A stretch of DNA of 45,466 nucleotides, filler included, from Jimgerdemannia flammicorona (lineage: Eukaryota): NCBI GenBank assembly GCA_003990765.1. It is 2 parts of 2 records of this genome, joined end to end, with 100 filler letters (N's around TTAATTAATTAA, not from the genome) between each part and the next. Parts side by side here need not be neighbours in the genome. Positions count along the whole stretch, not along the records: positions 22,785 to 45,466 come from RBNJ01001227.1; 1 more part is not named here. The stretch is one strand, 5' to 3'. This document shows positions 8,537 through 45,466 of the stretch, in pieces. Positions within the stretch are counted from its first letter, which is position 1. Each line of letters starts with the position of its first letter. Made by a program: the position numbers and the translations under genes. The notes beneath the pieces are model-generated. The model searched no databases. It was not told where the DNA came from and was given only the letters and a program-made list of their open reading frames with translations.

Positions 8537-8830
8537 AATCTGAATCACTCTATCTAAATCACTTTATCTGAACTACTCCATCTGAACCACTCTATCCAAA
8601 TTACTCCATCTGAACTACTTAATCTGAATTACTTAATCTGAACCACTCAATCTGAATCACTCAATCCAAATTACTTAATCTGAATTATTCAATCTGAATT
8701 ATTTAATCCAAATCACTCAATCTGAATTACTCAATTCAAATTATTCAATCTGAATCATTCAATCCAAATTATCCTATTCAAATTATCTAATCCAAATCCA
8801 TCAATCTGAATCCTCCAATCTAAATCCTCT
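8537..8830. repeat. 14-bp minisatellite, 21 copies, consensus AATCTGAATYACTC
   Basis: Uninterrupted 14-nt periodicity from aatctgaatcactc (8537) to aatctaaatcctct (8817-8830), with no spacers. Confidence 0.92.
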
Positions 8831-21562: not shown

Positions 21563-21974
21563 ATTGGTGCTTCCAAAGCCTCCTTGTCCTCTGTTAGTAT
21601 CTTCTAGTTGGTCTACCTCTTAAATGGTTGGCTGTGATGTCTTGATAAACAGGATTTGGCAGATGGCTTCCATAGGACTGAAGAATTGGCTGGTTCTACT
21701 AGAATTGCGGATAATGGCCTTCAAGGGACCTCGATAGTCCTGATTGATGACTCCTCCTTCTACTGTGACTCCTTTGGTTGCCCAAGAGGATCTTGAGGCC
21801 AATTGTCCATAATGCCCAGGTGGTATAGTGAGTGCAATCTGTAGGTCAAAGGTCCTGGTACTTCTGGGTCGGGTTCTTGCTTGGTAGGGGAGGCAGAGGT
21901 CATAACCAACTAATCCTTCAGTTTGTGCAAGAGGTGGCTGTGCCCAGGGTGAAAGCAGCTTGACCTGGATAATT
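21563..21974 (-). pseudogene. dut: Trimeric dUTPase domain of element B
   Basis: VGYDL, SRSSWA, GVINQDYRGPL, ICQIL, and after one TAA stop RGQGGFGST. Confidence 0.92.
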
Positions 21975-22684
21975 GGTTGAGCTTTGAGAAATGGCACTTC
22001 AGCTGTTGCCATTGTAGGTGAGAAGTCCATGCGCTCCAGTTTGAAGAAAGGCCAGTGAGCTCCTGTCTTTGAGTTTCTTGTGTAATTGAATCCAGTCTTT
22101 CCTAGAGGGTCCAGAGCTTCCATAAGGATGAAGGCAAGGTTGATACCTTCTTTTCCTTGATGAGGGTGGTAGTACCAGTGAATAATGGCCAGGACTTCCA
22201 ATGGTAGGTCCCAGATAGAGGTCTTGCTCTTGAACTTGCAATTTCCTTCATGGTTGATTTCTTTGTACTTCCGACAGGCCCAGTGAATTCGAGGTTCTTG
22301 CAGGGTGGGATCCTTTCTCTTGACTTGGCTCTTGTAGACATCTTCGCTGAGGTGAACATCTCGATGTTCACATCAGTAGCAGGTAAAGGTTTTTCTGCAA
22401 TCACAATGTCCCTTCTTGACAAAGTCTTCATTTTGCTGTTTGATCTCCCTGCTGGTAGGGAATCTCTTCCGATACTTGTCATAAGTGGGCTGTGTGATCT
22501 GGAGGGCCCGGGTGATAGTGTAAGAGCTGTTGCTTTCTCCTTCAATGGTAAGGGACTTGAATGTTGGTGGGCGAGGATCTTCTGTCCTTCCTTATAGGTC
22601 TTCTTGAAGGTCTTTGGGGTTGGAGGTTGTATTCGGCTGTGGGATGGTGCTTGCTTCAATTCATCCTTGTCATCAATTTCTGGC

Positions 22685-22784
22685 NNNNNNNNNNNNNNNN
22701 NNNNNNNNNNNNNNNNNNNNNNNNNNNNTTAATTAATTAANNNNNNNNNNNNNNNNNNNNNNNNNNNNNNNNNNNNNNNNNNNN
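22685..22784. other. Assembly spacer: N44-TTAATTAATTAA-N44
   Basis: Exactly 100 nt, symmetric, with a central 12-mer that has stops in all six frames. This is typical of artificial contig concatenation. Confidence 0.95.
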
Positions 22785-25695: not shown

Positions 25696-25700
25696 GCTTA

Positions 25701-26164
25701 TATAATAGTTTCACAGTCATATTTAGTCTTAGTATATTTTTATATCTTTTAGTTAGTCTTTTCTTATCATTTCTTGAATATTCTACTATGTTCCACCATC
25801 TTCTACTTACTTAGAAACCTTCTCTCAGTACCCAGATACTACTAGAATATTTTTGTCTTTTCTTGGTATTAAGTATCTTGTCTTAGCTAGTCATAGAACC
25901 TTTTGGAACATTGTAGAATCATATTAGTCATCTTTGTCAAGAATCTATTTCTTGGTATTTCTCTTTCTTTCCAAGATTCTTTCAGATCTTTCTTTCAGAT
26001 CATATATAAATATCCTTGTTCTCTATCTGAATAAAGCTCAGAATATTTTCTCCTAGAAATTCTTCAAGAACACTTGAACCTTTAAGTATCTCTTCAAGCT
26101 ACTTTAGGCCAATTAGAACTTCCAGACTTAGCCACTTTCTCTTAAAGAAACTATAACTATTATA
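25701..26164 (+). repeat. 5' LTR of the chromovirus-like element
   Basis: Direct repeat of 31777-32240, with TATATAAATA at ~26003 and AATAAA at 26030. Confidence 0.95.
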
Positions 26165-26329
26165 CTTAGTAGTAGTAGTATTGTTATACCTTACCTTATT
26201 AAGAAACCTTATACAAATTTTAAAACCAGTCACAACTAGTCACATGAACTCAAAATAAGTTGCAAAGAGTCAGCCTATTAGTCAGACCTCTCTGAAGAAG
26301 CAGAAGAACCATAAGCTAGCATAGAGGAT

Positions 26330-27292
26330 ATGATTGCCACTATGGCTCACCAAATCTAAGCACTTCAAGTACAACTAAAACTGTAGAAAATAAGAACTGC
26401 AAGTATATTATACTCTACCATAATACCAGTTAGTTTCAAGCTACTCAAGCCAGATACCTTTGATAGTCACTAAGAAGGACTATCTATAGATACATAGACC
26501 TTCCAATTAGATCAATACTTCAAGCTCATAAGAATGAAAGAAAATATGTAAGTCCAATTTACTGCCACACTTCTTCAAGGAAATGTAGTTATTTGGTAGT
26601 ACAATCATATCATAACTATATCTATATACTCACATATATAAATCAAGAATTGGGAAGCTTTCAAGAGAGCCCTTCATAGGCAGTTCAAGCTTACTAATAC
26701 TATCAAACTAGCCAGAGATAAGCTAGTAAATATCAAGCAACTCAAGTCTATACAAATCTATAATATATAATTCCTATTAATCCTATTTGAACTATCAGTA
26801 ATAGCAGAGGATGAAAAGATAGACTACTATATCTAAGGTCTGAAAGGAAACACATGAGTCAAAGTTAAGCTAGAAGAGCTACAAAGCCTTAATGAAGCTA
26901 TGAGGATTACCAATTGGTTTGATATTATCACCTTTAGTAACCACTTTGAACCAGAATACTATAAGAAGAACCACTTCAAGAACTGCCACAGAAATCAATC
27001 AAGAATAGTTGGCCTAGCACTAATAGACTTAGACACCATAAATAAAAAGAACACCAAGCTCACCTCTGAAGAAAAGGACCACCTGAAGAAATCCAGAGCC
27101 TGTTTCTTTTGTTGCCAAATAGGATACATTGCAACCAAATATCCTAAGAAGACTAGTGAATCTTCTAGACCAGTTACTATATTGTCCAAAGACATACCTG
27201 TCAACTCTACTATCAGTCAACCCAAGCTTAAGATCAAGAAGCTTCACCCAAAGACCCAGGCCCCTCAATATCAAACAGAAAGAGTCACTTAA
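26330..27292 (+). pseudogene. gag: Gag of the chromovirus-like element
   Basis: KPDTFD, W..FKRAL..QF, ARDKL..IKQ and a decayed zinc knuckle ACFFCCQIGYIATKYP. Confidence 0.85.
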
Positions 27293-27379
27293 GAAGACAA
27301 TACATATCTTTATAGTAATGGTCTATTCTAAGAAATAAGACAAGAGACTATTAGTCAATGAAAGTATCAAGCTATTGTT

Positions 27380-29946
27380 AGAAGAATTCAAGAATGTCTT
27401 TCTAGATAAGCTATCTGGTCTACTGCCTATATGAGAAGTTGATCATAAAATTGAACTGACCCCAGGAGCTATACTACCCAAGAAATACATATACTATATA
27501 TCACCACTTGAAATTGAAGCAGTTAAGAAAAATCTAGAAGAACTACCTGCATAAGGAATCATCCAGCCAAGAAAATCTCCTTATAGCTCATCAGTCCTAT
27601 TTATCAAGAAGAAAAATAGTACTTTGCAAATGTGTATAGACTACTATATAATCAATAAGCTTACTGTCAAGAACCACTATCCATTATCTCTGATTGATCA
27701 AATCTTTGATGTTCTTAAGAATGCCAAGTACTTCACCAAGTTAGACCTTATGTCAGAATACTACCAGATCCAAATTAAGCCAGAAGATATCTCCAAGACT
27801 GCATTTATGACCCCCTTTGGACTTTACAAATTCCTGATCTTAGCATTTGGTCTCACCAATGTACCTGCCACATTCTAGACTCTGATGAATAAGATATTTA
27901 AGGACCAACTATTTATTTTTCTATTGGTATATCTTGATGATATTCTGATCTTTAGTATAACTAAAGTAGAATACCTCAAATACATTCAAATAGTCCTAGA
28001 GATCCTGCAAAAACACAAGCTTTACACCAAGCTCAAGAAGTGTGAATTCTTCAAGAAATAAGTCAAATATCTTGGCCATATTATCTCTGTATAAGAAATT
28101 CAAGTAGACCTATATAAGATAGAAGTAATTAAAGAATGGTCTATTCTGTTGAATCTTACAGAACTCCAATCCTTTCTTAGTCTAGCTGACTACTACTGCC
28201 ACTTTGTTAGAAACTTCTCTGGTATTGCCAAGCTACTGACTAACCTCATGAGGAAGGCTCTATACTCAGACCACTATGTACCCTACACCTGGGACCTCTT
28301 CTGTCAACAAGTTTTTTAAGAACTCAAGAACTATCTGACCTATACTCTAGTCCTGTATAATATAGATCAAGGTCTAAAATTCATGGTTACTACTGATGTG
28401 TCAAATTTTGCCATTGGAGTAGTCTTGTTACAAGATGATGGTAAAGGACACTGTTCTATTACTTTTGAGTCCCACAAGTTGGCCCTGGCTTAGCCACTTA
28501 TGAGAAGAAACTACTGACAATAATACATACACTAGACCACTGGTGATGCTATCTAGAAGGTGTTAAGTTTGATATCATTACTGACCATCTCCTCAAGTAT
28601 ATCAACACTCAACCTACTCTGTTATATCTATAAGTCAAGTGGAGTCTCAAGCTTCAAACCTTCAACACAATGATCATCTATAAGTCTGGTAAGACACTTA
28701 TAGTACCTGATGCCTTATCAAGATGCCCAGACCTCACCACAATCATATAGGTCACTTTGGTATCAGAATTCTTAGACCAAATTAGACAAGCTTATAAAGA
28801 AGATACAGTTGCTACTAGAGTTTTCTCAAACAAGCTCAAGGATATATATACTATTGAGAACAACCTAATATATCATCAAGACCAAGTCTACTTATCTGAA
28901 AACATGAATCTATATTATAAGATTTTATAAGAACACTATGCTCCTCTTACTAGTCATCTTGGAATCAAGAAGACTATTAAGATATCTAATGCCACTACTA
29001 TTAGCCAAGCATAGTCAAGGAAATCAAGAACTATATTGCTAGCTGTGATATATACCAGCACAATAAGTCTATCAACCAAGTACCAGCCAGTTTGCTACAA
29101 CCACTACCAATTTCCATCAAGAAATTCAAGTAAGTTACTATGGACTTTGTAACTCAACTATCATGAACTCAATCTGGTGCTGATGCTATCATAATATTTA
29201 TTGACCACCTGACTAAGACTATGGTTGCTGAACCAACCACTACTAATGTTACTGTACCTGAGATTATAAGAATTTTTTTTAAGTCCATCTTCCATCACTA
29301 TGGTCTACTATGAGTAATTATTAGTGATCATGACTCCAAGTTTACCAGTCACTTCTGGCAAACTCTCTTCAAGATCCTAAGAACCCAATTGGCTATATCT
29401 ATTGCCTTCTACCCACAAACTGATGGACAAACTGAGTATATGAATAGAACTTTAGAACAAATGCTTAGAAACTATATTTCTTATAAACAAGATAATTGGG
29501 ACCACTATCTGACTTATGCAGAGTTTTTATACAACAATGCTGTTCAATTATCTACTGGTCTTTTCCCTTTCTGGTTACTCTATGATCAAGATCCTGAGAC
29601 CCCTGCAAGTCTATTTTCTTTCAAGAAAAGCAGTCAAATACAAGTTTCTACCACCAAGAGCCTTATAGACAAAATGGATGAACTACTCAATATTACTACT
29701 ATAAATCTTCAGAAGGCTCAATAGCATCAAGCCAAGTATACTGATAAGAAATGCTGTGATATTACTTATACTATTGGAGATCAAGTTCTACTATTTACCA
29801 AGAACCTCAAGATACAATTTCAAGTCAACTACTCTTTGAACAAGTTCCAACCCAAGTATATTGAACCTTTTGAGATTACTGAACAAGTCTCCACATCCTC
29901 CTACTGCCTCAAGCTACCTGAAACCATAAGAGTACACTCAGTCTTT

Positions 29947-29949
<3 letters not shown>
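27380..29949 (+). pseudogene. pol: Pol (RT, RNase H, integrase) of the chromovirus-like element
   Basis: MCIDY, KTAFMTPFGLY, FGLTNVPATF, VYLDDILIFS, TDVSNFAIG, TMDFVTQL, FYPQTDGQTE. Many stops. Confidence 0.95.
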
Positions 29950-30017
<68 letters not shown>

Positions 30018-31191
30018 TTTTATGGACTTTATGTCTTGTGGATTTTTATTGGAAGGGAACCTAGACTATATAGGCCAAAACCCTCCCCTACCACCTATCA
30101 AGCACTGCCCCCCCCTATTAATCTAGGCTAACTATTGTCCAGCAGCTTAACCATGTCAGGCACAGTAGGATAAAGTAGCCTGTATCTCATTCTGTACACT
30201 ATGCTCTCCCTACTACTAGGGGAAACCCAGCCATATACCAACAACTGAAAGTGCATGCCCAAGAACCCAACATATGTACAAGGCCATGCTCAAGCCGAAT
30301 AGAATAGCCCCTGCCACCCCAAAGAGAATGACAGGCAAAGAAAAAACTCTCATCAAAGTACAACATAGTGGATAGAGCCTGGTTCTCCCAGTTGAGGTGA
30401 GTAGAGGACTTATACATGAGGCAGGAGGAGACCCCCAATATCCCACTACTCAAGTCTGCAGGCCTCGATCATGTTGCTATATCAGCTCCCGATTCCAGTT
30501 GAGTACAGTCAAGATGTCTGAAATGAGTAACCTCAGGCCCCCCGACCCCCCCAGATGACCAAGGCCCAACCCCACAAATCACCAAAAGAAGCTGAGAGTG
30601 ACACCTACCACCTAACTACACTGCACCAAACAAAAGGCCCCACTGAAGCAGCACCTGCCCCAGCCCTGATGACCACCCCCAGCCTGGTACCCTACTGGTA
30701 TACTGTTATTACCCTTTCTCCTATCTGTGATGGCCATCTCCCCTCCCATCCTGACAACACCCGAAAAGTAGTTACCTATGCCAGAACCATGCTTGCCGAA
30801 AAGCTTGCCAAAGCCAGAGGGCCCCATCACAGGTACTGAGGACCTACAGGTAATCTATACTAAGCACTTGATGCCCAAGGTCGGCCAACTCCCTATGTAG
30901 CCCAAGACACACTGAGACACTACCTTGTTGGCAACAGCAAAAGAAAGAAAATGCTGCACCAAAATGGATACACTCCAGATGTAGCTGAAGGCACTAGAAA
31001 CCATGAAAAAGTGGAGAAGACACTGATCCGACACTGATAAAGAGGCAACTCATCACTATTGCCTCTCTCCCGCTATGCCCATGCAGGCACAGCAAACCAA
31101 CCCAAGGGTAATAATAGGGGAACAGGAACTTGGAAGGTTGCCTACCAAACCTTGTGACCAGTAAGGTAGCAGAGAAAGGGGTATCTGTCTT
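29950..31191 (-). mobile_element. 5'-truncated non-LTR retrotransposon of a second family (probable RNase H and CCHC remnants), inserted antisense into the integrase
   Basis: Long poly(T) at ~29950-30016 and an 18-bp TSD gtacact(c/t)agtctttcat at 29932-29949 and 31192-31209. One frame gives AITDRRK...LRLLISDILTVL...T*VVGYWG, resembling RNase H motifs (the RNase H call is weaker than the element call). Confidence 0.85.
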
Positions 31192-31299
31192 GTACACTTA
31201 GTCTTTCATATATCACACCTCAAGACCTAGAACCAGTCACCATCCTATCTTGGTTGAATTTCTAAGCCATCTGTCCCTATAATTATTGAAGACTATATT

Positions 31300-31467
31300 G
31301 AGTATAAAGCTGAGAAAATTCTTGACAAACAAATCCACTACCACCATCCTGAATACCTAGTCAAGTAGATGGGCTATCCTGAATATGATACTATCTGGGA
31401 ACTACTGGTCAACCTTAAGAACTCTTAAGATCTAGTTCAAGACTTTGAGACAAAATATATTGTCTAA
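31300..31467 (+). pseudogene. Integrase C-terminal chromodomain
   Basis: EYKAEKILDKQIHYHHPEYLVK*MGYPEYDTIWELLVNLKNS*DLVQDFE matches the chromodomain pattern Y.VE.I...EYLVKW.GY....TWEP..NL. Confidence 0.9.
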
Positions 31468-31776
31468 TCTCTATAGTGACTTTCTTGAATTGTCAATGAC
31501 CTATAGTAATGACCAGTATCTTATACATTGGAAGTTTACTTTGGGACTCCAGAACTAACAGAATATTTAATGAACAAGAAGTCTACTGAAATGAAGCTAC
31601 TAGCTAGGTTCAAACTCCTCCAGTTGATTAGTCTGGTAATAGGCCCTCTGCCCTATACAAAGATGATCAATCTCTATCAATATACTGATACAAGTTTGAG
31701 AAATTTTGGTTAAGTATATCTAGCCTTGTATTACCTAAGAACTCAATAAGGATGTTGGTTCTTAAGGAGAGAGGGA

Positions 31777-32240
31777 TATAATAGTTTCACAGTCATATTT
31801 AGTCTTAGTATATTTTCATGTCTTTTAGTTAGTCTTTTCTTGTTATTTCTTGAATATTCTACTATATTCCACTACCTTTTACTTATTTAGAAACCTTCTC
31901 TCAGTACCCAGACATTACTAGAACATTTTTGTCTTTCTTTGATACTAAGCATCTTGTCTTAGCTAATCATAGAACCTTTTAAAACATTATAGAACCATAT
32001 TAGTCATCTTTGCTAAGAATCTATTTCTTGGTATTTCTCTTTCTTTTCAAGATTCTTCTGGATCTTTCTTTCAGATTATATATAAATATTCTTGTTCTCT
32101 ACCTAAATAAAGCTTAGAATATTTTCTCCCAGAAATCCTTCAAGAATACTTGAACCTTTAAGTATCTCTTTGAGCTACTTTAGGCCAACTAGAACTTCCA
32201 GACTTAGCTACTTCCTCTTAAAGAAACTAGAACTCTTATA
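31777..32240 (+). repeat. 3' LTR of the chromovirus-like element
   Basis: Direct repeat of 25701-26164, preceded by the PPT and followed by the TSD. Confidence 0.95.
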
Positions 32241-32245
32241 GCTTA

Positions 32246-33400
32246 GCTCATATAGATTAAAGCTTTTATGTTTTTTATTAATGCTCAAGTTAATTGAACT
32301 GAGTGCAGAGCCAGGCCTTATAGATATTATATCTGTCTACATGGTCTCTATTTACTTGAAGATTATTAGCTTATTCTGTTCTATAGATATCTTCTCCAAT
32401 TTGCTTTGCTTAGTTGTAATTCTATAGAGCAGGACTACTCAGAAGTAATTCTACAATTCTGAGCTTTCTCTGAGCATCTCACTGCTAGGCTGCTACTTGT
32501 ACTTCAATTTCTCTAAGAAATTTCTCAATATCTTCACTATCTATACTATGGAATTTCTGAAGATAGCTTATGTCTAGTTCATCTTTACTATCTGAGTCTG
32601 GTTCTGGAGTAGAGTTTCTTAATGATGCTTGGGATAGAGATGATGGAGGTGCTCAATGAACTGGTAAAAGGTAGTATCTTGGTAAGAATGTAGAGAGTCT
32701 GGCCCTTTTAATTAAAACTGAGGTAGAGGTTCTTGATTGTAGAGATTCTTTAACTAAGTGATAGTGATCACTAAATACTAAGGTGCTGAGAGAACTAGAG
32801 CTTTTTTACTCTTATAGATAGTATTGGAGTGTGAAGAACCAGAGTACTGAGATTCCAGCAATTGAAATAAGACTAATGTAGCTAATATTCAGTTTGTCTG
32901 CCTCTTACTATCATAAAGTAGTAGAGTTTTGTTTATCTTACCAAAGGTTTATATTTTTGTCTAAGTAGTAATAAAGATAGAATTCATCTCTTGAGTAGTC
33001 TGATTGAATTCTCCAATCATTGTCTTTCTCTTGTTCTAGAAGGTAAGGATGATAATCTTCTTCTTTTTCAAATATTTCAAAATATACTTGATTCAATAGT
33101 ATGACTTAGATAATAATAGTAGTAATGTAGTTACTTCTGTCTGAATCTCTTCTATAGATTAGGCTCTAGTATTCTTCAGGAAAATCTTCTTGTTCTGGGT
33201 CTTGGGTCTATATGGGCTCAGATTGTTCTATGAGATATCTTCTTTCTCTTGAGATTAAACTATAGTCTGAGTTACTTTTTTCTTCTAACTCAGTTTCTTG
33301 ACTACTAGTTCTGAACAGAGTGAGGGCTATCCTGACAATGGTGTATGCTTCTCTTTCTGAAGTAGGCTACTATTGGCTAGTTTTTCTTAAATTCTCTACT
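32246..33400 (-). mobile_element. Upstream (gag N-terminal) part of Gypsy remnant D
   Basis: Joined to 23973-25695 by the GCTTA TSD. Decayed coding-like sequence on the minus strand; right boundary uncertain. Confidence 0.5.
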
Positions 33401-33847
33401 ATAGATAACTGCTGAGTTTTTAAGCTAAATGGTTAAGTCTTTAGAAAACTTTCCTAGTTAAGCTTCTAAAATATAGCATGTAATTTATATAGATTATTTT
33501 ATTGATATATATGGCTCAATGTACTACTGATTATTTATATGCTATTTATCTCTTTACTAATAATACTCTGGCTCAATATTTACTTTAACTACTGTTTGAT
33601 TTATTTGCTAAAGTTTACATTATGATGAAGTTTGTATTATATTAGAGTTTATATGTCTCAAGTTATTGGTCACATGACTGATCATTCAGAATGACAAAAA
33701 AGGAACAGTGGTTTATTCATATTATATATTGTTCTGTGTTTTCTAGTAATTATTTTTTGGGTTCTCTTTTTTTTTTTTATATAGTTTTGTGGGTTCTCTA
33801 TATTTCTTGGCAGTTAAGCATATTCTTAGCTAAGTTTCCTAGGCCTT

Positions 33848-34332
33848 GTGGAGGAGGAGAGCCTAGCAGGAGCCAGAGGAGTAAACCTAAAACCAGTATC
33901 AAAACAAACAGAAGATATGTAGAAGAGCATGTATAAGGGGGACAAATAAAGAATATAACTGAATTTGCATCAGCTGTTTATTGCTATATAAAAATGTAAT
34001 CCTTATATACAAAATATGATATTCCAAAAGGAAGGATGTACTACAACTTGGGGTGAACCAAATTAGGAACCACATGATTACTGGAGATAAGCAGAGATAA
34101 AGAGGGAGCCAATCCTAGTTGCAGAATAAAAATCACAAACAAATACAAACAAAACAAATCTAAATTGAGATTAAAAAATATCTGTAGACTCTGGAGGGGT
34201 GAGCATGAGCAAGGGGTGAGACTGAAATGGAGCAAGCCATAGTGAGTCTAAAGATAGTGGAGGGGAGCAGAGTAAGACCAAGACCCCAGAGCAAGTACAA
34301 GACCCCAGAGAGGGCAAGGATGTTTTTTAATC
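33848..34332 (-). repeat. 3' pseudo-LTR plus tail of the Penelope-like element
   Basis: Direct repeat of 43281-43781. It includes a copy of the first ~27 codons of ORF1. Confidence 0.9.
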
Positions 34333-35700
34333 CTCTCCAAAAGAACTGGAGGCACCAGAAGGTGACAAAAATACAAAATGAGAGTAATGGATTAAAGAAG
34401 AAATAGAAAGAAGATGTGAACGAGCAATCAGAGGGCATCAGGAAAGAGATGAAAGTCCATGGTAGGAAAGAGAAGAGTGCAGGACAGTATCAGGGCATTG
34501 AGCAATCCAGCAAGTACAATCAAATAGTATGACAAGAATTGGAAGAGAGAATGAAGAGAGGGTACAGAGTGGGTAAGGAGAGAGGGAGGGGAGGAAGGGG
34601 GGGTAATGAGGAGAGAGGAGAGAGAAGCAAACAACAGACTATTCAATAGAAGCAAGCAGATCATGAATGATAGAAATAGGGTAGACATGATGATGGACCA
34701 CAAAGTTTCCAAGAACCCAGATAGCAGACACCTAATCAGAATGATGAGAGTAGTATAATACAAGATGATGAACCTTACCATGAATACAATCAAGAAGAGT
34801 GTAATGAGGATGATTGGAATGGAAGTCAGGAAACTGTTGGAAATAGGAAAAATGAGAATAAATAATAGTTTGAAAGAGAGAAAGAGAAATGGAAAGGTCC
34901 AAAAAGGGAATACTAATCATATCATACACCCACATAATGGAATGATAGGGAGGGTAGATACCACAGAACACACTAGAAATATCAATACCAGTAATAGTAA
35001 GAATGATAAAGTTATCAATGTATTGATAGAAGAAGATATCTCCAGCCCAGAACATGATGGAAAGAGGTGATGAAGGATTATATATTACATGAAGTTCATA
35101 GGCCAGGCCAATAAAGTTGGCAAGAGTGAGGGTACAATTCATTCTCATGGCAATATCAGAAGTCTGGTAAAAGGAGCCAAGAGCTGATTTGAAGTAGTTG
35201 GAGCTACAGATGAGGAATGTGAGCTCAATAATAGAAGCCAATGAAACCGGGGAATCTAGAGGAAAAACAATGGAACCCAGGAAGTGAAGACAATTATTGA
35301 TCTTATCAAAATGAATAGTAGTGTAGAAGGAGGAGAAGTCACCAGAGGCCAAATGAAAAAAATAGTAAACAGGCATAATAGTGGAGCAGAGAAAGGTGAG
35401 CTTCTGAGTATTATGAAGAATTGTATACTCAGGCCCAAGGTGGTGTTATAGAAGAGCCATCTAAGAGAGAAAGAAGTGGAATAACCACTTTGAAATATCA
35501 GTAGTAAGAGAGCTAAAAGTAGTCATAATAAGATGCTAAGCCAAAATAGACTTATGGACTTTAGGAAGAGCATAGAAAACCAGAAGACAAATATCCAGCA
35601 AGGACAACAAGTCCTGGAAGAAGTTAAAAATGGGGTTCACAAAAGGAGAATCTGAAAGTGATCTGGTGTGAGTCAGAGAACCCCAAAGGAGAGTGAGAAT
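34327..35700 (-). pseudogene. Penelope-like RT core, thumb and C-terminus; no GIY-YIG domain
   Basis: Motifs from LPKVHK to HSNHP, then decayed HHVYP and CPLIARSHLLSISSLIHYS. The frame ends with TAA at 34329-34327 at the start of the pLTR. Confidence 0.85.
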
Positions 35701-35791
35701 TTTTTTTTTTTTTATAGTCACTTGGACTGCCCTTTATTACTACTATCTATAATGATCATTATACAGTATCATACAGTATCATCCCATCCCT

Positions 35792-38700
35792 TTAACCAAT
35801 CCCCCTCAGTTCTATACCACTCTCCTCAATGCCTCCCTGCCTGAGGACAACCCAGTCCCCCACTACCCAAATTCTCCCATTACTTTTCTGAGAAATTCTC
35901 TGCACCAAATCTCTGCACCTCTCCCTCCCTGGCCCCCACCCCTGCCACCAGCCATTCAAAATATCTAGCAACAACTATTCCCAATGTGCTACCTTATCCC
36001 CAACTCCAACCCGCTGACCCTCCTCAAATACATGCACCCAATGCCCAGTTATCCCAACCCATATAGCCAGAGCCCAGCCAAGCATCAGCTATTCATCTCC
36101 AATCCCTCCAACCAGCCTCTGGTAGAGCTCACCTCATCTCCCCCCTACCCCTCCCTCCAGGGCTCACAGCCCTAACCTGTCCATGATACATCCCCAGAAT
36201 ACTCCCAACACATCACACTCAGCCAGCCAATGTTCAGACATTTGTACCACCCCTCCCTCCTGACCAATGTTGAGGCATTCTTCATACTCAAAAGTGCCCC
36301 CATCCACCAAATGCCCAGATCAATAGTTCAACATCACATTCTGCCATAGAACTTACCATCATACCACCCAGAACTTGGGGGGCAGCCACTGCATCACCTG
36401 CTCGCTCCAAAGCCAGAGCCCATTCCAGTCCCACTCCTCACCAATCCCAACCCTCTGCCAGGCCTCAGGCCAAAGGTCACCACCCAAGCCCCACAGACAC
36501 TCCATACTCTCACCAAGCTAGAAGTCCTCCACCAAGACACCACCCAGCAAAAGTTTGTCCCACTGCCACATCTGTAGTCTCCAGTCCTCCTCTCCCTCCC
36601 CACCCTGCCACCGAAGTTCAATTCTTTTAGCTCCATCTACTACCCTCCACCAAAAGCTCTTATACCATATCCTCCTACTTCCATCCATGTCTACCATTAC
36701 AAGTAAGTCACCAGAGTCTCCACATGGGGAATACCAGACCTCTCACACCCTCTGCATGAGTGGTACCTACTCCCAGCCCCTCAGCTCACTTGCCCTCCAC
36801 AGCCACCAGGCCCTCAAGCAATGAAGCCACTTGGTGAAGTCCACTAAACCCAGCCCACCTCTTTCCACTGGTAGTGTGAGGGTTTCCCAACCAATCTGAC
36901 TTCACCAGCTCTCCCAAATCCACAATTTCACCATCTTCAACAGCCCCCTAATCACCCAAGTCAGAAAGTCCAGATGATACCCAATATACCATAGCTTTGG
37001 TAGCCAATACACATTCAGCACCATCACCCTCCCTGCCAGGGACATGTACTGTCCCCCCCACCACAGGAGCACATTTCCCCACTCCAGAAGCTGCTGATTC
37101 CACCATGCTTGGGGAAGGAGAGACCCATATATTGAGAAGTAGATCCTCAAGTATCTCATGGACTCACCTGCTGGCACCACTGTCCCAATTACATCATTAC
37201 CAATGATTCCACCACCAAGCACCAAAGTCTCACATTTGTGTCAATTGAGTTTAGCACTAGAGCCCCTCTCATACTATTCAATAAACTGTTGTAATTCCTC
37301 CATGTCCATCAACAATCCCAGACCAACCACCATATCATCTGCAAATGCCCCTACCTTCCAATTTATCCCTAGAATGTCCAAACTCCCAATTTGATACCAG
37401 ATCCTATCCAGTAAGGGTTTCAGGGAGAGGGCATACAAGATGGATAATAAAGGGTCCCCTTGTGGCACTCCACAGCTGAGTGGAAATGCCACCCCCCTGT
37501 GACCATTGATAACCAATACAGCCTAACTGTTCTCCAAAAGGCCAATTAACAACTGATGAACCCCTGGGGGAATACCAATCCACTTCAATACTCCCTCCAG
37601 CCAAATTCTCCATACTCTATCATATGCCTTCTCCTAATCCAAGAAGACCAACCAGCCACCCACTCCTACAGCCCAGATATCTTCAATTACACCATACACC
37701 CATGCTGTCCCATCATGGATCAACCTATCACCAACAAATCCATATTGCTCTACTCCAAGCACTTGTTGAGCAATACCTTGCAGCCTCATCACCAATATCT
37801 TTGTCACCAGCTTGCAGTCTATGTCAAGTAGCATGATCAGCCACCAGTTCTTCCAATCTTCCTGCCTCTCCTTATTCTTATAGAGCAAGGAGACTAGCCC
37901 CAGGCACTGGCCCCCAATCCAAGTTCCAGACGGAAGAACCTCCCCACACATATCTGCCATTTCCTCCAACACCATGCCCACCCCAGTCATCTTCTTTCAA
38001 AAGTCTCAGGGGAGTCTATCCTCCCCTGGAGCTGTCCCCTTGCTGGTTGTAGCCAGGATCCTGCCAATTTCCTCTTGGCTCACTGGGTCTCCCAGAGTCC
38101 CCAGACCTATTGCAGGGTCCAGATGCCAATCTCCCAGCTGCCTTTCAATGTCTAAAGCATCCTCTCTGCCCTCCTCTTTACTCTATAGACTCTCTCAATG
38201 GGTTCACAGCAATTCTAGAATTACCAGTGTCCCTACTACCAGCTTCCCATCTACATCCAGAACTCCTTCCCACCTCTGCTTCATTTGCCATGCCTGAAGC
38301 ATCCATGATAGAAACCAAGTAGGTCTCTCCCCCTCCTCAAGTTCTTGCCACTGCAGCCTTGCCACCATCCCCTGCAGCCTCACCTTCTCCTCCTGATATA
38401 GCACTCCTTTAAGCTCCACAACCTCCTTCCAGATCCTTACTATACACCAGTTGGTCACCTCCCTATCTTCCAGCACACCTGCCCATCACTCCATGAGTGC
38501 TGTCAAATGCTGTGATGTCTATAACACTCTCCGCCTTTATTGGACACACCTTCCTTTTCCTGCCTCCCTTCAGTATCCCTAAGCATTCACCTTCAGCCTC
38601 CTCCAGTAGTCCACAATCCCCAGGCCCTGATCCCTCCACCTTCTAATGTTCCCAATAACCTCTCTTTCCCAGTCTGCCCACAAACCCCCATCCTTCAACA

Positions 38701-39454
38701 GAGAATAATTTAGGTGCCAATATCCAGGCCTATTCTTCTTACCCCCAAATCTCTCCCCTCCTAGCAACTCTCAGTGATCAGACCATAGACACCAAACTAC
38801 CTCCAGCATTGTCCAGACATCTACACCCCAACAATTCACCATCACAATCCAGTCAATTCTGGAGCCCAGTCCTGCTGCCCAATGCATATAAATCTGATGA
38901 TCATCCCAAAACCATCTCTCTGAATCCACCAGAGAACTCAACCTCTCCAACTCCAACCAGTCATCCAATCCACCACTCCTACCCTGCATTCCTCTCCCTC
39001 CATCTGTCCTGTCCTTTCCCTTATCCCACACTATATTGAAGTTACCCCCTAAACAGTCCAACCCAACCTCTCCTAAGACACCAGCCTCTTTCAATCCATG
39101 AATCCAATCCACCCACTCTCCTCTCTCAGCAGGGTAGCAGATAGACCCCACTGTCAACAGGCTCCATCCAGGCCACCTCCACACTCCCCACACTAACCTA
39201 GACCCCCAATGTCCAATGTCCCCAATGTTCTCCAACCCTTTCCGAACAAGGATACCCACCCTCCCCATCTATACTACAGCCCCCCCCCATTCCTTGGTCC
39301 AATCCTGTAAGTCTACATCTACCTCATAATGGACATCCTACAGCAAGAAGAGATCTGCATCTAGTCTCTTTAGCTAACCAAATATGTACTTCCTCCTTGT
39401 CACCCACCGTAACCCATTGATATTCAAAGAAAAAATCCTAGTTGTACTGTTCAT
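35792..39454 (-). pseudogene. LINE ORF2: APE endonuclease, RT and C-terminal CCHC finger
   Basis: SLNINGL, GGNFN, SRIDW, SDH (endonuclease); LLDIDCKL, QYGFV, GVPQGDPL, FADDM (RT); MSLAGRVMVLN, GGLGLVD; and a decayed EC...EHWLAEC...W finger. Confidence 0.93.
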
Positions 39455-39587
39455 ATTGAAAAATATTTACAGCTGCTGTCCCAACCTAGTACTCTATGCT
39501 CATCTCATCTCCAGTCAGATCCAAGTGCCTCTCTGCTTCCAAGTCACCCTCCACAACAGCCTGAGCATCTAATGCCTCCAAGATCTC

Positions 39588-41414
39588 CTAACATTCCACC
39601 CCATCCACTACCTCCATCTCTGACCAGTAGTCCCTGCAGACTACATACCACTTCTCCAATTCCTTTCTCAAGTTCCACAAGAATACTGCTCTGTCATTCA
39701 CAATCTCTCTAAGTTCCTCCTCCCACTGATCATCAACCTGGTATTCAACTGACTCCAAGAGGACAGCCAGGATCTCATTCCTCACTTTCCTCAGCACCTC
39801 CTCTCCCTGGAGAATCTTCTCCCAATGCCTCTCTTCCATAACCCTGAAGTCTTCTCCTCCTAGCTCCTCAGCCACCACTCCTTCCAGAGTCTTCCATAGC
39901 CACTTCTCCTCATCCACTGCCTCTGCCACACCCTGGGTGATCTGCCCCCCCTCCACCTCTTGGTCCACCAGGGCACTCCTCCTCACAGACTCATCCCACT
40001 CCTCATCTAGGACATCCAGCAACTCCTCCTCCCCTCCCTCTCCTCTCAGGACACTATACTGAGAGTGTACTCCTTTACTCATTTTGGCATCAGTCTTCCC
40101 ACCACCTTCTCTTGTCTCTCCCAATCTATGCTACACTCCACCTTGGGCCAACCTGCTTTCCCCAGCCCAGGCACTCTCTCTTGATCCTATGTTTCCTCCT
40201 CCTGTGCTGCCCTCTACTCTACCCCCACTCAACATCGCCAGCAGCTCCTTCTGAATCTTCCTTCCCTGCATCTTCTCCCAGGCCACCTGATCCATCCTGA
40301 CCCTCTTTCCATCTACCTCTTCCACCACCATTCTGGCCACGTACTCTTTCCATGCCACTCTCCTCCTCTTGACCACCCCTTCCAGATCCTCCAGTGCCTC
40401 AAGCAAGTTCTCCTCCTCCTCCAGAGTCCCCTTCACCCTTGTGATCCTACACTCCACTGGTCTCCACCTCAGTGTTGCCAGTCAGTCTCTCATCTTCCCC
40501 ATATTCTCCTTCCCAGCCAATCACACTCTGATATCGATGTCACCAGTTTGAAGCTCAGTATCCTCCTAGACCTTGAACCCAACATTCACAATCTCCCTAT
40601 ATTCCTTGACTGCCTCTACAATCAACTCTCTGGCCCTCTCTTTCGACACCGTCAGAAGATCTAAAACCATCAACTGCACCACTCGGGGGTCCCAGCACAT
40701 GCACCTGGCCATAAGGACCACAATCCTGCCCACCATCACTCCCTTCTCCATGGCCACCAGCAATGCTTCCTCCTCCTCGAACCCCACCTCGATCTCTTCT
40801 TTCCCCTTCAAAAACTTCACCAAAGCTACACCCTTCACCTCCTGTGTCACCAGCCCCAGGATCATCCTCACCATCACCACTAAGCCCCTGAAATATATTG
40901 TGACTGCGAATTCTGACCTTGATTTCTTGAGTAACAATACCAATATCATGCCCATCACCCCATCTGCCAGGTCCCTGGGTCTTGCACCCACCCCCTGTCC
41001 TGAATTAGCAGCCACCATCACATCTGGATTTTTTGCCAGATTTCCAGTCACAGCCCCATCAATAGTCACATCTCCCACCCCTACTCCCCCTCCTTCCCTA
41101 CCACCAGACACTCCCCCAGACACCCCTCTCTGTCCTCCAGCAGTAGCCATTGATGTCTTCCCCAGCCCCAGCCAGCCATCCAGCCCCAAGGCCATCCTCC
41201 CCATCTTGACTTTATTGGCGAAGGTCAACTGCTCCCCTCCTCGCTGCCTCAAGCCACCCCTCTCTCCACTACCAGTGCCCTGGCCAGTCATTGAGGCCCC
41301 CGGTATCTCCAGACCATCACTCCTCCTCTCTACCTGCTGCTAGCCAAAGGCATCACCACCTCCCTGACCAGTATGCTCACCAGATTGATCATTGCCATTC
41401 ATGTTGGTAGTCAT
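39588..41414 (-). pseudogene. LINE ORF1
   Basis: Long purine-rich coding frames (40566-41291, 40131-40457, 39588-40124) upstream of ORF2, starting at the ATG at 41414. Homologous to the fragments at 1-181 and 1275-2480. Confidence 0.8.
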
Positions 41415-41503
41415 CTGTCATCAAAAATGTTGAGAAAGGTGTTGCTGAAGTCTTGTGTCACCTGAATGGTACTGGTAAAACCCCCCCAAAGGAGAGTGAG
41501 AAT

Positions 41504-42180
41504 CTCATCTAATCCAAGAGCACTAGACTCATAAGCCATGGCTCAAAGAAGGGCAGAAAGGCCATCAAGATAGAGCAACTTAGAAATAAGTGCAAAACCT
41601 TGATTCTTATCAATAACTGTGAGCAAATACAAAGGCAATTGCTTGACTGATTTAAGCATAGTATGTATGGTATAGTCTGAAACCAAGCAAGAGTGAGTGT
41701 ATCCAGGAATGGACAGCAAGCAAGCCATATCAAGGAATACATAGTGTGAAGAGATATTGGGAGGGGGAACTCAATTGCTAGAGATATAATAGTGAGAGAG
41801 TATCTCACTATGATTCTCAAAGAAGATAGCAAGGTCAAGAGTATGATGAAAACATATAAGATGAGCCAGATCAGTGAAGGAGAATTGTGAGGGAGTCGCA
41901 GGAAAGACAAAGTGAGGACCCAGAGATAAGGCAAAGACTTGAAGAGGAGAAAGGAGGCAGTTGGCCAAAGAGAAAGGAGGAGATAAAAGTGTTTCAAAAG
42001 AAGAATAAATCTGAGAGTTTGAGACAAGTAACTGGGAAAGACAAAGGGGGGACAGCATGAGAAATCACTCAGGATACACCAGGAGTGATGATGGAATCTG
42101 AGAAGAGATGGGGATACTGGGGGAGAACTATGCTAGAGGGAAGTTTAAAAGTGGGAGGTCTTCCCCTTCCCTCTGACTTT
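41504..42180 (-). pseudogene. N-terminal part of the Penelope-like RT ORF
   Basis: LSPLQVFALSLGPHFVFP...FHHTLDLAIFF...LTVIDKNQGFALISKLLY. It reads through DEILTLLWG into GSLTHTR once the LINE and one TSD copy are removed. Confidence 0.82.
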
Positions 42181-43362
42181 TTTTGAAGGTGGTAAACCTA
42201 ATGAGTGAGAGCACACCCCATCAGAGTATCAGACCTTATAGCCATAGGCTTTCATGCAGCCCTTACATTCAGGGGCATGGGTTGAGGAGGTGGAGGAGAA
42301 GGAACTGGCAGAGGAGGCAGAGGGTGAGTGAGCAGCTGAAGGGGCAGCAGTATGAGGAACACCACCATGGGGGCAGACAGACTTAACCGGGTACCAGTAG
42401 GCATAGTGGAGGTGACCAGAGTAGACAGCACATGGCCAGGCCCAGATGGGGCAAGAACCAAGTTAGCAGCTATACTTGGGGGTGGGGGGAATAGAGAAGG
42501 AGGTTTGGCAAGAGAGGGGGACTGAGAATAGGCCAACAAAGCCTGGTTGGGCTTGGCAGGAATCTTGGTGGGGGGTCTTGGTGGCAGCAGCAGTGAAGGA
42601 ACAGACCTTAGTACAAACAATAGCACAAGCCTTGGCACAGATGACCTCAGAGACTGAAACCTCAAGAGAGGCAGGCAGGAGAGTAGTGGTGGTGGTGTAA
42701 GCAGCAGCAGCAATACATAATATTTCCTGCTTGTGAAGATGAGTAATAAAAGAAGTACTGGTGAGAAGAAAGCAACAAACAGCATCAATGTCAGCAGCAG
42801 TAGAGGAAACATCTTGGATGGCAAAGCCACAGTAAGGGGCAGCATCTGTGAGATGGGAAGAGATGAAGGCCACAAAAGTGGTACAGGCATAGTAGAAGGA
42901 GGCAGAGGCAGCAGTGGCAGAAATAGTGACAGCATCAGTAGCAGCAAGCTTAGCAGTAGCAGTAGTAGAGTGAACCTCTTTGGAGAGAGCTTGGCAGTGG
43001 GCCTCAGGGAGAATGGAGTAGCAGATGGCAGGTGGAGTGATGATGTTGACATTATGGCAGAGATGAGCCTCCTTGGTAGAGAGAGTAAGAACTGACCAAA
43101 ACTGAGAGAGAAGTGGATGATCAGAAGGACAAAGGTCCAGAGAGAGGGACAGAATGGTGGATGAGACATAGGTCTTGAATGAGACAGTGGTGGGGACAAA
43201 AGTGAGGGGAGGGGGAGGAGGAAGAACCTCATTCATAACCTTATCAATAGAGATGGAGACCCTGAGGGCAGACAGTACAGCAGTGGAGGAGGGCCCAGTG
43301 AGAGCTAGGGGAGCAAACCCAGAAGCAGTGTCAAAGTGAACAGAAGATATGTGGAAGAGCAT
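42145..43362 (-). pseudogene. ORF1 of the Penelope-like element (Ala-rich helical region, basic C-terminus)
   Basis: The 299-aa ORF 42463-43362 continues in frame through two single-transition stops to ...PPSKKVRGKGKTSHF*. Its start is duplicated in the pLTR tails. Confidence 0.7.
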
Positions 43363-43781
43363 GTATAAGGGAGATGAATAAAGAATATAACTGAATTTGC
43401 ATCAGCCATTTATTGCTATGTAAAAATGTGGTCCTTATATACAAAATACAATATTCCAAAAGAGAGGACATACCACAACTTGGGGCAAATCAAATTAGGA
43501 ACCATATGACCATCAGAGATAGGTGGAGATAAAGAGAGAGTCAATCCTAGTTACAGAATAAAAATCACAAACAAACACAAACAAAATAAATCCAAATCGA
43601 GATTAAAAAACATCCACAGACCCCAGAGGGGTAAGTATGAGTGAGGGGTGAGGCCAAAACAGAGCAAGCTGCAGTGAGCCTAAGTAAAGCAAGGGGCTGA
43701 AGGTAGTGGAGAAGAGCAGAGTAAGGCTGAGACCCCAGAGTAAGCATGAGACCCCAGAGGGGACAAGAATGTTTTTTAATC
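43281..43781 (-). repeat. 5' pseudo-LTR of the Penelope-like element
   Basis: Direct repeat of 33848-34332. Confidence 0.9.
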
Positions 43782-44103
43782 TCATTTTGGATTTGTTTTG
43801 TTTGTGTTTATTTGAGATTTTTATCCTACAACTAGGATTGGCTTCCTCTTTATCTCCACTTATCTCTGGTAGTCATGTGGTTCCTAATTTGATTCACTCT
43901 GAGTTATGGTATATTCTCTCTTTTGGAATATTATATTTTATATATAAGAACTGTATTTTTATATGACAATAAATGGCTGATACAAATTTGGTTACATTCT
44001 TTATTCATCTCTCTTATACATACTCTTCTATATATCTTCTATTTACTTTGACACTGGTTCTAGGTTCACTCTCCTGACTTCTGCTAGATCCTCCTCCTTT
44101 ACT
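43767..44103 (+). repeat. Inverted partial pseudo-LTR
   Basis: Reverse complement of 43281-43615 and 33848-34183. Confidence 0.9.
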
Positions 44104-44109
44104 GGAATA

Positions 44110-45454
44110 AGGAATTTGCCTGGTACAGCCTGCTCTGAGAGCAGACAGAAGAAGAAGAAATGCAGACATATTCCAGAGACATCTGCAGCTAAAGCTACAG
44201 AAGTACAAGCAATTTGAGAATAAGAATCATCTGAGGAAGAAGAAGCTCCTGACTAAGAAGTTCCTGAACAAGAAGTATCTGAAGAAGAGATCTCTGAACT
44301 CATTCCCTGGGATGACCCTCACTGGACACTATCTGAAGATAATGACCCTTGGAATATGGAAGAAGAACCCAGTATAATCTCCATTATTCCCAAGAAAGAA
44401 ACACACCAAGAAAGGACTTTTCAGCTAAGAAGATGTCTATACTAAATAGTCTTCCACTCTCCCCAAAACTACTGCTATTAGTGCCATCTACTAGACCAAT
44501 AGGAGAGATAGAGACCCCAGAGACCAGAACTCCTGAATATAGTTGCACAGTCAACTACCTTCCAAGAAGTTACCACCAAGTTGCAAAGTTGATTCAGAGG
44601 ACAAGATCTCTTCACCTGAATAGAAGTGTATCCCTTGTCTACTCTTCTCCTAACTTATGACCAAGATGGATACTAATTCCCAAGACAACAAGAAATCAAT
44701 AACTGGGAATATCATTTTTGAGCAATGGCATACTGTAACCATAGAAGACATCCAGACTGCTGAGACTGCAGACATCAGAAGATTTACCTCAGTCATGATG
44801 TTGCAATCTACACCTTGAAGAGAGGAGATAACAGAGGCCAGATTTGAAAAAGCTAAACCAAGAAGTCAGAAAGAAGGACTCTTAATATCTATGATTTAAG
44901 AGAAGACATCTTAGCTCTTATCAGACATACAACCTACTAAGGATGGATAGAGGATGCCACTAACTTTATAGAAGCCCTAGACCCTACAGAAAGAAGAGGA
45001 ATTAACTATCTCTGAGATCTCTCTACTGGAGCCAGATGGCCACACCTCAACCTTAGAGCCTGCTTGTGGAGCTTCAGCCTTAGGATAGCTTGAACTTAGC
45101 AAGGATATTGCCCAGTATGCCCTGCTACATCTCAAGGCCAAACCCCTGACCCAAGCTCACTCAGAAGATATAAGATATGATCTTTACAGTCTAGAGGATG
45201 AATCTATCAAGCCTGGAAAAACATTCATAATCAGAACCAGACTAGCCATACAGCCACTCTAAGGAGCCTACATCTAACTGATCTCAAGATCTGGACTTGC
45301 CAGACAATAGATAACTATAGAAGGAAGAACTATTGACCCAGAATATATAGGCAAAATCAAGATCATCCTACACAATAGTAGCACAGAATGGCACTGAATT
45401 ATTAGAAGACAGAAGATTGCCCAAGCAGTCTTTATGAAGGTCAAGACCTCACAA
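44110..45454 (+). mobile_element. Fragment of a third dUTPase-bearing Gypsy-like family (element C): acidic tract, Zn-finger-like motifs, accessory domain, dUTPase
   Basis: The frame starting at 44221 aligns with the pre-dUTPase region of element B. It is cut on the right by a poly(T) run at 45455. Confidence 0.78.
45101..45454 (+). pseudogene. dut: dUTPase domain of element C (motifs I-IV; motif V cut off)
   Basis: IRYDL, SRSGLA, RTIDPEYIGKI, KIAQAV. Confidence 0.85.
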
Positions 45455-45466
45455 TTTTTTTTTTTT
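45455..45466 (-). other. Poly(T) run, probably the tail of another antisense non-LTR insertion
   Basis: It interrupts the dUTPase abruptly, like the tails at 8085, 29950 and 35701. The rest lies outside the window. Confidence 0.45.

Follow-up and report, generated by a model that had tools for sequence, protein, structure and literature searches.

An old Penelope-like element with inverted and direct terminal repeats, probably lacking an endonuclease, in Jimgerdemannia flammicorona

A stretch of 45,466 nucleotides from Jimgerdemannia flammicorona (GCA_003990765.1), referred to as a whole as the window, was analysed following an earlier note, made from the sequence alone, which had proposed the presence of a Penelope-like element (PLE) without an endonuclease (EN). 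On balance, the span 33848-44104, which lies within record RBNJ01001227.1, represents one old and decayed insertion of an EN-less Penelope-like retrotransposon on the minus strand, with terminal repeats in both inverted and direct orientation, that was later split by a long interspersed nuclear element (LINE). Confidence is high in the anatomy and the assignment as EN-less when these are taken jointly.

Anatomy of the insertion

The earlier note had treated the whole span as a single element. In fact two elements are nested, the PLE and a LINE bounded by a target site duplication (TSD) matching at 20 of 20 positions. The span measures 10.2 kb, and 4454 bp remain as the PLE insertion once the LINE and one copy of its TSD are removed. 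Read along the minus strand, the insertion consists of an inverted 336-nt copy of the 3' end, a direct 497-nt copy of the 3' end and a full unit of 3629 bp, which runs from 43284 to 41484 and from 35680 to 33853 and of which the final 480 nt constitute the terminal repeat (Table 1). The unit contains a reverse transcriptase (RT) open reading frame (ORF) without a nuclease domain and, upstream of it, an ORF1-like frame. The positions previously given for the direct pair and for the inverted arm were recovered by repeat search and blastn. Members of the direct pair (33853-34332 and 43285-43781) were 84% identical in ungapped blocks and 79.9% identical over 497 aligned positions by blastn, while the inverted arm paired with 43278-43613 (336 nt, 82%) and with 33852-34181 (330 nt, 83%). 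Allowing a 3-nt gap in a (GGA)n run, the homology of the 3' copy continues to about 33846. Membership of the PLEs is marked by pseudo-long terminal repeats (pLTRs) that arise from partial tandem insertion and may be accompanied by an inverted, 5'-truncated copy, an arrangement found here. Composition shifts sharply at approximately 35.7 kb and 41.4 kb, the outer parts being purine-rich on the plus strand and the middle having a GC skew near -0.55.

Table 1. Features of the PLE insertion and of the LINE nested within it, in window coordinates.
Feature	Position	Strand	Basis or remark
Possible arm tail (uncertain)	44105..44142	+	44124-44142 resembles the start of the unit body at 43260-43278; local alignment
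Inverted arm	43769..44104	+	Copies the final 336 nt of the unit (3' part of the pLTR) in reverse complement; repeat search, alignment, blastn
Upstream direct partial copy (5' pLTR, 497 nt)	43285..43781	-	Truncated exactly at the 13-nt inverted repeat where the arm begins
5' part of full unit	41484..43284	-	ORF1-like frame and start of RT ORF; ORF list, frame translations
LINE TSD, upstream copy, 20 bp, ATTCTCACTCTCCTTTGGGG (minus strand)	41484..41503	-	20/20 against 35681-35700
Nested LINE, 5783 bp	35701..41483	-	RVT_1, Exo_endo_phos clusters, poly(A), composition edges
LINE TSD, downstream copy, 20 bp, ATTCTCACTCTCCTTTGGGG	35681..35700	-	PLE frame continues across (…EILTLLW / ILTLLWG…)
RT ORF, 3' part	34327..35680	-	phmmer, tblastn, translations; no frameshifts
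3' terminal repeat (pLTR, 480 nt)	33853..34332	-	Begins 3 nt before the RT stop codon
13-nt inverted repeat half, GATTAAAAAATAT	34169..34181	.	Partner ATGTTTTTTAATC at 34320-34332; sequence reading, DNA fold

The RT frame of 642 codons extends from an ATG at 42058 to a TAA at 34329-34327, the stop that the earlier note had placed at 34327, and is interrupted by eight in-frame stop codons and no frameshifts. The motifs LPKVHK (35568-35551), YIDN (35022-35011, a decayed YxDD) and FLDL could be read in frame, and beyond them lie the thumb and a short C-terminal stretch. A DKN motif is situated upstream of the LINE at 41611-41603 and was identified by eye against an alignment with relatives, not by a search. 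The N-terminus of the ORF lies approximately 150 codons ahead of this motif, as it does in the EN-less relatives P0003 and P0006. A PLE-type RT is recognised by an N-terminal DKN, LPKxHK at RT motif 1, RT motifs 1-7 and the thumb, and the window RT was judged to be of this type, with DKN read by eye only. The ORF1-like frame is open from an ATG at 43362, inside the pLTR, to 42463, and its start recurs in the last 80 nt or so of the 3' pLTR. It yielded no match in Pfam and no usable match in the protein atlas. Pfam returned no family, not even RVT_1, for the PLE ORF pieces and read-through frames, and a PDB sequence search gave nothing useful for the RT piece.

The insert within the RT ORF is a full-length LINE. 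It carries a poly(A) tail of 13 nt (35713-35701, minus strand) and is flanked by the perfect 20-bp direct repeat, across which the reading frame of the PLE is continuous. The read-through frame of 35714-41482 matched RVT_1 (1.3e-19, 71.2 bits), and upstream of the RT in the same frame lies a piece resembling an apurinic/apyrimidinic endonuclease (APE), at approximately 38774-39268, which fell among Exo_endo_phos clusters of the protein atlas (score 0.95, 173 shared features) and had no match in Pfam or PDB. A non-LTR retrotransposon is defined by an APE and an RT encoded in a single ORF, together with a poly(A) tail and a TSD, and the insert conforms to this definition. The sense strand of the LINE is very G-rich (plus-strand GC skew about -0.55 over 5.8 kb) and its translation is rich in tryptophan and glycine; candidate causes of this composition are a native bias, CpG decay (CGG>TGG) and RNA editing.

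The ORFs of both elements, the RT ORF of the PLE and ORF2 of the LINE, are broken by stop codons only, with no frameshifts. The ratio of observed to expected CpG was 0.03 in both halves of the PLE, 0.07 in the LINE and 0.0-0.29 elsewhere in the window, the background of which is AT-rich (26-35% GC). Judged from these sequence features, the decay fits long-term deamination of methylated cytosines and would imply very heavy cytosine methylation in the host. A process resembling repeat-induced point mutation was considered as its cause, although the low CpG ratio (0.03-0.1 over the window as a whole) and the large number of variable sites that fall in CpG are accounted for no less well by deamination of methylated CpG. 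In a glomeromycotan fungus, both PLEs and heavy CpG methylation of repeats have been reported (PMC13443276). The TSD of the LINE is still intact at all 20 positions, against a loss of some 8-9% per repeat copy of the PLE, and the LINE therefore probably inserted long after the PLE.

Lack of an endonuclease and relatives of the reverse transcriptase

A HMMER scan over 1.84 billion representative proteins yielded 12 proteins at E <= 0.001. The best phmmer match to the window RT was P0001, an environmental fragment of 406 amino acids (8.4e-44, 42% identity). When P0001 was compared with the window by tblastn, residues 1-404 of its 406 aligned from 35568 to 34369 in a single frame (38.9% identity, E 4e-74). 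The alignment thus reaches to within 2 residues of the C-terminus of P0001, and the stop codon of the window ORF lies 14 codons beyond that end point. A GIY-YIG match was present in one only of the 12 proteins, P0009, where it was weak (21.7 bits, just below the cut-off of 22.6 bits). P0001, P0003, P0004, P0006, P0007, P0011 and P0012 end soon after a common C-terminal motif and are without a GIY-YIG match in Pfam. The GIY-YIG part of P0009 found no match inside the element by tblastn; all five of its matches had E >= 0.51 and lay elsewhere in the window. These relatives were recognised as PLEs by the combination of RVT_1 and GIY-YIG in P0009 and by motif names as given in PMC13159263.

A tree was constructed from 74 rows, comprising the window RT and library proteins of at least 380 amino acids drawn from P0001, P0003-P0007, P0009-P0012 and P0044-P0109. 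P0002, P0110-P0158 and rows below that length were excluded. The tree was obtained by a quick IQ-TREE search under LG+G4 with support from the Shimodaira-Hasegawa-like approximate likelihood ratio test (SH-aLRT) only; named PLE clade references were not among the rows, and the program warned of an odd amino-acid composition in the window row. The window RT paired with P0001 (SH-aLRT 100), and the two fell in a clade of six rows (support 100) with P0003, P0010, and Racocetra fulgida and Gigaspora margarita proteins (glomeromycotan). This clade was nested in one of 13 rows (support 98), in none of which was GIY-YIG found by a Pfam scan or in precomputed domain lists, and the three rows flagged for GIY-YIG fell in another part of the tree. 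Amphibian relatives of the PLE RT (P0074, P0075, P0079-P0081, P0087, P0089 and P0101; 400-742 amino acids) were likewise without GIY-YIG in the precomputed domain lists. They group near the rows that bear GIY-YIG and may thus be truncated gene models, not EN-less elements.

Pfam fails even on the RT of this copy, and a missing Pfam match to GIY-YIG therefore carries no weight alone. The collinearity with P0001, the GIY-YIG-free clade and the failure of the P0009 nuclease to match within the element nevertheless agree with the earlier note, which had described an EN-less PLE with no GIY-YIG motif at either end of the RT ORF, and the assignment of the element as an endonuclease-less PLE is supported by this sequence comparison.

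It could be argued that the family is not autonomously EN-less, the target having been nicked in trans by the nuclease of an EN-bearing (EN+) PLE or of a LINE, or the element having descended from an EN+ ancestor after loss of the domain. An APE-type LINE family is present in the same genome, and secondary loss of EN within EN+ clades is on record (PLE-X and MjPLE01; PMC8557442). Moreover, according to PMC3846280 the inverted and direct pLTR layout is characteristic of EN+ PLEs and is not found among the EN-deficient PLEs of fungi and protists. We regard this explanation as improbable: no TSD was found, the 3' end of the PLE has no poly(A), and the RT resides in the 13-row clade, apart from the three EN+ rows.

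Termini, junction and origin of the inverted arm

Both the absence of a TSD and the absence of telomeric repeats, as reported beforehand, were borne out. Local alignment of the end of the left flank with the start of the right flank in direct orientation was no better than chance, its score being equalled by 1524 of 2000 shuffles. The sequence (TTAGGG)2 was absent from the whole window when up to one mismatch was allowed, TTAGGG being the one motif searched for, which may not be that of the host, and Tandem Repeats Finder output for the window contained no telomere-like array. Telomeric EN-deficient PLEs (Athena, Coprina) are marked by short telomeric repeats in reverse complement at their 3' end and by a location at, or close to, a chromosome end; the 3' end here is (CCT)2-3. 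On direct reading no poly(A) was seen at the 3' end of the PLE. Hammerhead motifs, which are reported from every PLE clade except Naiad and most Chlamys (PMC8557442), were not found in or near the pLTRs: Rfam gave none at E <= 1 in 33000-45466, where decay of the copy may hide the motif, and a scan for the CTGATGA core revealed no core with a plausible partner. Rfam searches of 16 loci from distant EN-less relatives were likewise negative at the gathering score.

The left terminus and the inverted right terminus had been reported to stop at essentially the same point, and by alignment the outer ends of the left repeat and the inverted arm do lie within about 6 nt of one repeat position. The arm may extend beyond it. 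Reverse-complemented, 44124-44142 agrees with 43260-43278, where the unit body begins beside the internal junction, at 14 of 19 positions with four further transitions, a score reached by 37 of 2000 shuffles in one of three flank comparisons tried. Approximately 19 extra nucleotides separate the arm from this stretch, and MAFFT did not recover the resemblance. If it is genuine, the arm may run about 40 nt past the stopping point of the left end, and 44105-44142 is accordingly listed as a possible tail only; a tail of 30-40 bp at one end is a described feature of PLEs (PMC8557442, PMC3846280). A tail common to both ends was also considered and rejected, the left flank matching the reverse-complemented right flank at chance level (785 of 2000 shuffles).

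The end of the direct partial copy and the start of the arm coincide in the same 13 nt, ATGTTTTTTAATC (43769-43781), which are the reverse complement of GATTAAAAAACAT at 43601-43613, 155 nt away. The left copy, which contains no junction, has ATGTTTTTTAATC at 34320-34332, where it overlaps the RT stop codon, and GATTAAAAAATAT at 34169-34181, the two matching at 12 of 13 positions. Since the copy without a junction also possesses the pair, the pair is the element's own. Folding of 34160-34340 as single-stranded DNA closed on the 13-mer stem in both the minimum free energy and the centroid structures, with an overall fold energy that was not unusual (z = -1.0). An exact inverted repeat of at least 13 nt arose in 20 of 1000 shuffles of 43285-43781. 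With the end of the direct copy and the start of the arm both placed in an element-borne pair, the "5' pLTR" is therefore a truncated second template copy, ended where the complementary DNA (cDNA) met its own complement.

The three repeat copies were compared over the 329 columns that are ungapped in all three (33853-34181 and its partners), the boundary (GGA)n run and the 155-nt loop falling outside the count. There were 247 invariant and 82 variable columns, 79 of the latter being transitions. Private changes numbered 26 in the left copy, 25 in the internal copy and 31 in the inverted arm, and included 0, 1 and 2 transversions, respectively; among three sequences a change private to one inevitably appears as a state common to the remaining two, and only these three counts are therefore comparable. 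Identity was 84.5% between the left and internal copies (Kimura two-parameter (K2P) distance 0.185), 83.0% between the internal copy and the arm (K2P 0.206) and 82.7% between the left copy and the arm (K2P 0.211), the most distant pair.

These figures bear on the central claim of the earlier note, that the inverted arm groups with the 3' tail rather than with the adjacent pLTR because the two terminal copies share two transversions which the internal copy lacks. The first of these, A33852/T44098 against T43284, sits in the (GGA)n run at the edge of the homology and is removed by a single 3-nt gap that aligns T33849, T43284 and T44101. What is left is one more GGA unit in both outer copies, and the number of such units is a slippage-prone character. 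The second, C33893/G44057 against G43325, is a real difference, but it is one of the 25 private changes of the internal copy, being its single transversion. The grouping itself is not supported, for the three copies are equidistant and the supposed sister pair is the most distant.

Shared decay was assessed by taking C>T and G>A as the forward direction, which gave forward private loads of 16 in the left copy, 10 in the internal copy and 22 in the arm. The deaminated state was common to left copy and arm at 14 sites, to internal copy and arm at 10 and to left and internal copies at 7. Independent parallel hits scaled to the loads predict 14.9, 9.3 and 6.8, respectively, by arithmetic on the counts; the observed sites match this prediction, and a pairwise shared history is thus not needed. 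The pattern fits an insertion with three identical copies, each of which subsequently decayed on its own. Given that the copies are equidistant, fold-back and two-ended priming fit equally, and one decayed copy cannot separate them.

The following course of events is proposed. Reverse transcription would be primed by an exposed DNA 3' end, provided by a break or nick and base-paired to (CCU)n at the 3' end of the RNA. No element-encoded nick would be involved, which would account for the missing TSD. The cDNA would pass through one unit and then 497 nt into a second template copy, whereupon its 3' end (…ATGTTTTTTAATC) would snap back onto the complementary 13-mer 155 nt behind and copy itself, generating the inverted arm, which would then be joined to the far side of the break. 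Compared with other routes by which the arm could be made, snap-back is a possible explanation that we would place somewhat short of an even chance; the possible tail and the published reading of palindromes at such junctions favour it.

The model of the earlier note, in which both ends of a double-strand break prime at RNA 3' ends and a long left cDNA is joined to a 336-nt right cDNA, appears rather unlikely. In its favour, both outer ends lie within about 6 nt of one repeat position and there is no TSD. Both cDNAs would be antisense and could consequently anneal only at the 13-nt inverted repeat, and the junction does lie on this repeat, there being no other strong self-complementary site. 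The left end and the arm are also each one GGA unit longer than the internal junction, though the slippage-prone nature of this character reduces its value. The substitution evidence fails, as set out above, and the shared deaminated sites are near the numbers expected from parallel hits. Furthermore, a real tail matching the 5' start of the unit would mean that the arm was copied past the 3' end of the RNA. Under either route we infer a break-primed start on (CCU)2-3 without a TSD, from the two to three CCT units at the ends.

Two separate events, namely a 5'-truncated 336-nt copy in opposite orientation with an independent partial tandem beside it, or a later rearrangement, would also produce this order of parts. 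PLE insertions are often heavily 5'-truncated and nested (PMC8557442, PMC3846280), and the window is a dense pile of nested retroelements. Nevertheless, the overlap of the arm and the direct copy is exactly the 13-nt inverted repeat of the element, the three copies are equally diverged, and PLEs are described as showing this layout repeatedly (PMC3846280). A history of separate events is hence very unlikely.

Several points weigh against a single EN-less insertion completed by snap-back. The (CCU)n priming would be read from two to three CCT units at the ends. Snap-back alone leaves unexplained why self-copying should stop within about 6 nt of the unit boundary, and the coincidence of the outer ends favours priming at the 3' end of the RNA. 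The tail, which would favour copying from the junction of pLTR and body, is borderline given the shuffles and the number of comparisons. There is a single copy, each repeat of which is decayed by some 8-9%, and Pfam is blind even to its RT. The EN-less state at the time of insertion is deduced from relatives and collinearity. Finally, the clade names Coprina and Athena cannot be assigned from a tree of library matches.

Genomic setting, comparison with other elements and significance

The present neighbourhood of the PLE is a stack of nested retroelements with no visible chromosome end. The right flank encodes a dUTPase (45147-45455, plus strand, 7.4e-17) belonging to a long terminal repeat (LTR) retrotransposon, the interior of which forms the flank of the PLE, and the left flank (32200-33847) is a candidate for the other half of that element, in which case the two flanks would give the empty site. 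A chromodomain Gypsy element occupies 25700-32200 to the left. The LTRs of the latter are about 420 bp in length and 91% alike, and its integrase end is broken by a run of 73 T (29949-30021). Elsewhere in the window, a second dUTPase-bearing LTR retrotransposon was observed at 21620-22372 on the minus strand, a 14-bp satellite of about 16-21 units adjoins an LTR at 8537-8830, and two 44-nt runs of N at 22685-22728 and 22741-22784 represent the filler joining the two records.

The layout corresponds to that of Pen2a_Av of Adineta vaga (PMC3846280), in which a shorter inverted pLTR overlaps the direct one by 15 bp, the ORF starts inside the pLTR and a tail is optional. The order of parts is the same, inverted shorter pLTR, direct pLTR, ORF and pLTR; the palindromic overlap is 13 bp in the window element, an ORF again starts within the pLTR, and there is a possible short tail at one inverted end. 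The palindromes at such PLE junctions were read by the authors as self-priming (PMC3846280), and an inverted 5'-truncated copy beside the upstream pLTR, with an overlap of approximately 15 bp, is the published typical layout of PLEs (PMC3846280, PMC8557442). Unlike the window element, Pen2a_Av has a C-terminal GIY-YIG nuclease and a 9-bp TSD, and in the tree the window RT is no more than a distant relative of the EN+ rows, a difference from canonical EN+ Penelope elements.

In coding content the element resembles Coprina. Coprina-1_Alen of Ascochyta lentis is EN-deficient, with two ORFs and direct terminal repeats, and occupies fungal chromosome ends between telomeric repeats (PMC13159263). 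The window element shares an RT ORF with DKN, RT and thumb but no GIY-YIG, a second upstream ORF and terminal direct repeats, and the nearest named relatives of its RT are fungal (Gigaspora, Racocetra) in a tree without named Coprina references. It differs in possessing the inverted arm and in its location, for Coprina-1_Alen is telomeric whereas the window element has no TTAGGG repeats and its right flank lies inside an LTR retrotransposon. Athena and Terminon elements of bdelloid rotifers similarly have EN-less PLE RTs with additional ORFs (PMC8557442, PMC13159263). Athena differs in its attachment to telomeres via reverse-complement telomeric repeats and in its hammerheads, neither of which was found in the window element, and the sole rotifer row in the tree is placed well away from the window RT.

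In L1 twin priming, the second DNA end primes on the RNA to give an inverted 5' segment joined at microhomology, the inverted part being derived from the interior of the RNA and dependent on the element's own nuclease. By contrast, the inverted part of the window element is 3'-terminal sequence and no nuclease is encoded.

Distant EN-less PLE RTs were present in 28 metagenome loci, at 23-28% identity apart from two short matches at 43% and 48%. None of these loci matched the window PLE at the DNA level, and none had an inverted arm at the 5' end, in a sample too small and too distant to weigh on the origin of the arm; one (L023) had direct pLTRs of 720 bp. Twelve of the 28 (L001, L004-L008, L011-L013, L015, L016 and L020) are contigs of approximately 3.3-4.1 kb with ends identical over 123-127 nt, and were thus assembled as circles or tandems. 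In a further locus, L024, units of 3196 bp with 99.98-100% identity follow one another in a head-to-tail array. The array and the circle-like contigs fit tandem DNA or circular templates for this distant EN-less group. The 4.2-kb contig L028:5-4230 (28% GC) is its own reverse complement over the full length (94.8%), with decayed pieces of a PLE RT tail to tail; it may be a genuine palindrome or have arisen in the assembly.

EN-deficient PLEs with two ORFs and direct repeats were known already, as was the inverted-plus-direct layout in EN+ PLEs. An inverted pLTR on an EN-less PLE was not found described in a search of the full-text literature, supplements being outside its scope. The EN-less state and the inverted-plus-direct layout together constitute a mildly unusual combination, in one decayed copy. 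That a PLE without a nuclease assembled the complete inverted-plus-direct pLTR layout at a chromosome-internal site and without a TSD is put forward tentatively and must be considered doubtful. The specific evidence offered by the earlier note for a new mechanism fails, and the window element is a lead for a genome-wide census, not a demonstration.

The origin of the tandem and inverted ends of PLEs is an open question on which the window element bears. The tandem and inverted layout has been ascribed to the cleavage properties of the GIY-YIG nuclease (PMC8557442). If the tentative claim is correct, the layout would be made by the RT itself, through a template jump followed by snap-back or through two-ended priming, independently of the pattern of GIY-YIG cleavage. 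Break-primed, nuclease-independent insertion would then be shown for the PLE class, and EN-less PLEs would be able to settle away from telomeres as patches in the repair of breaks.

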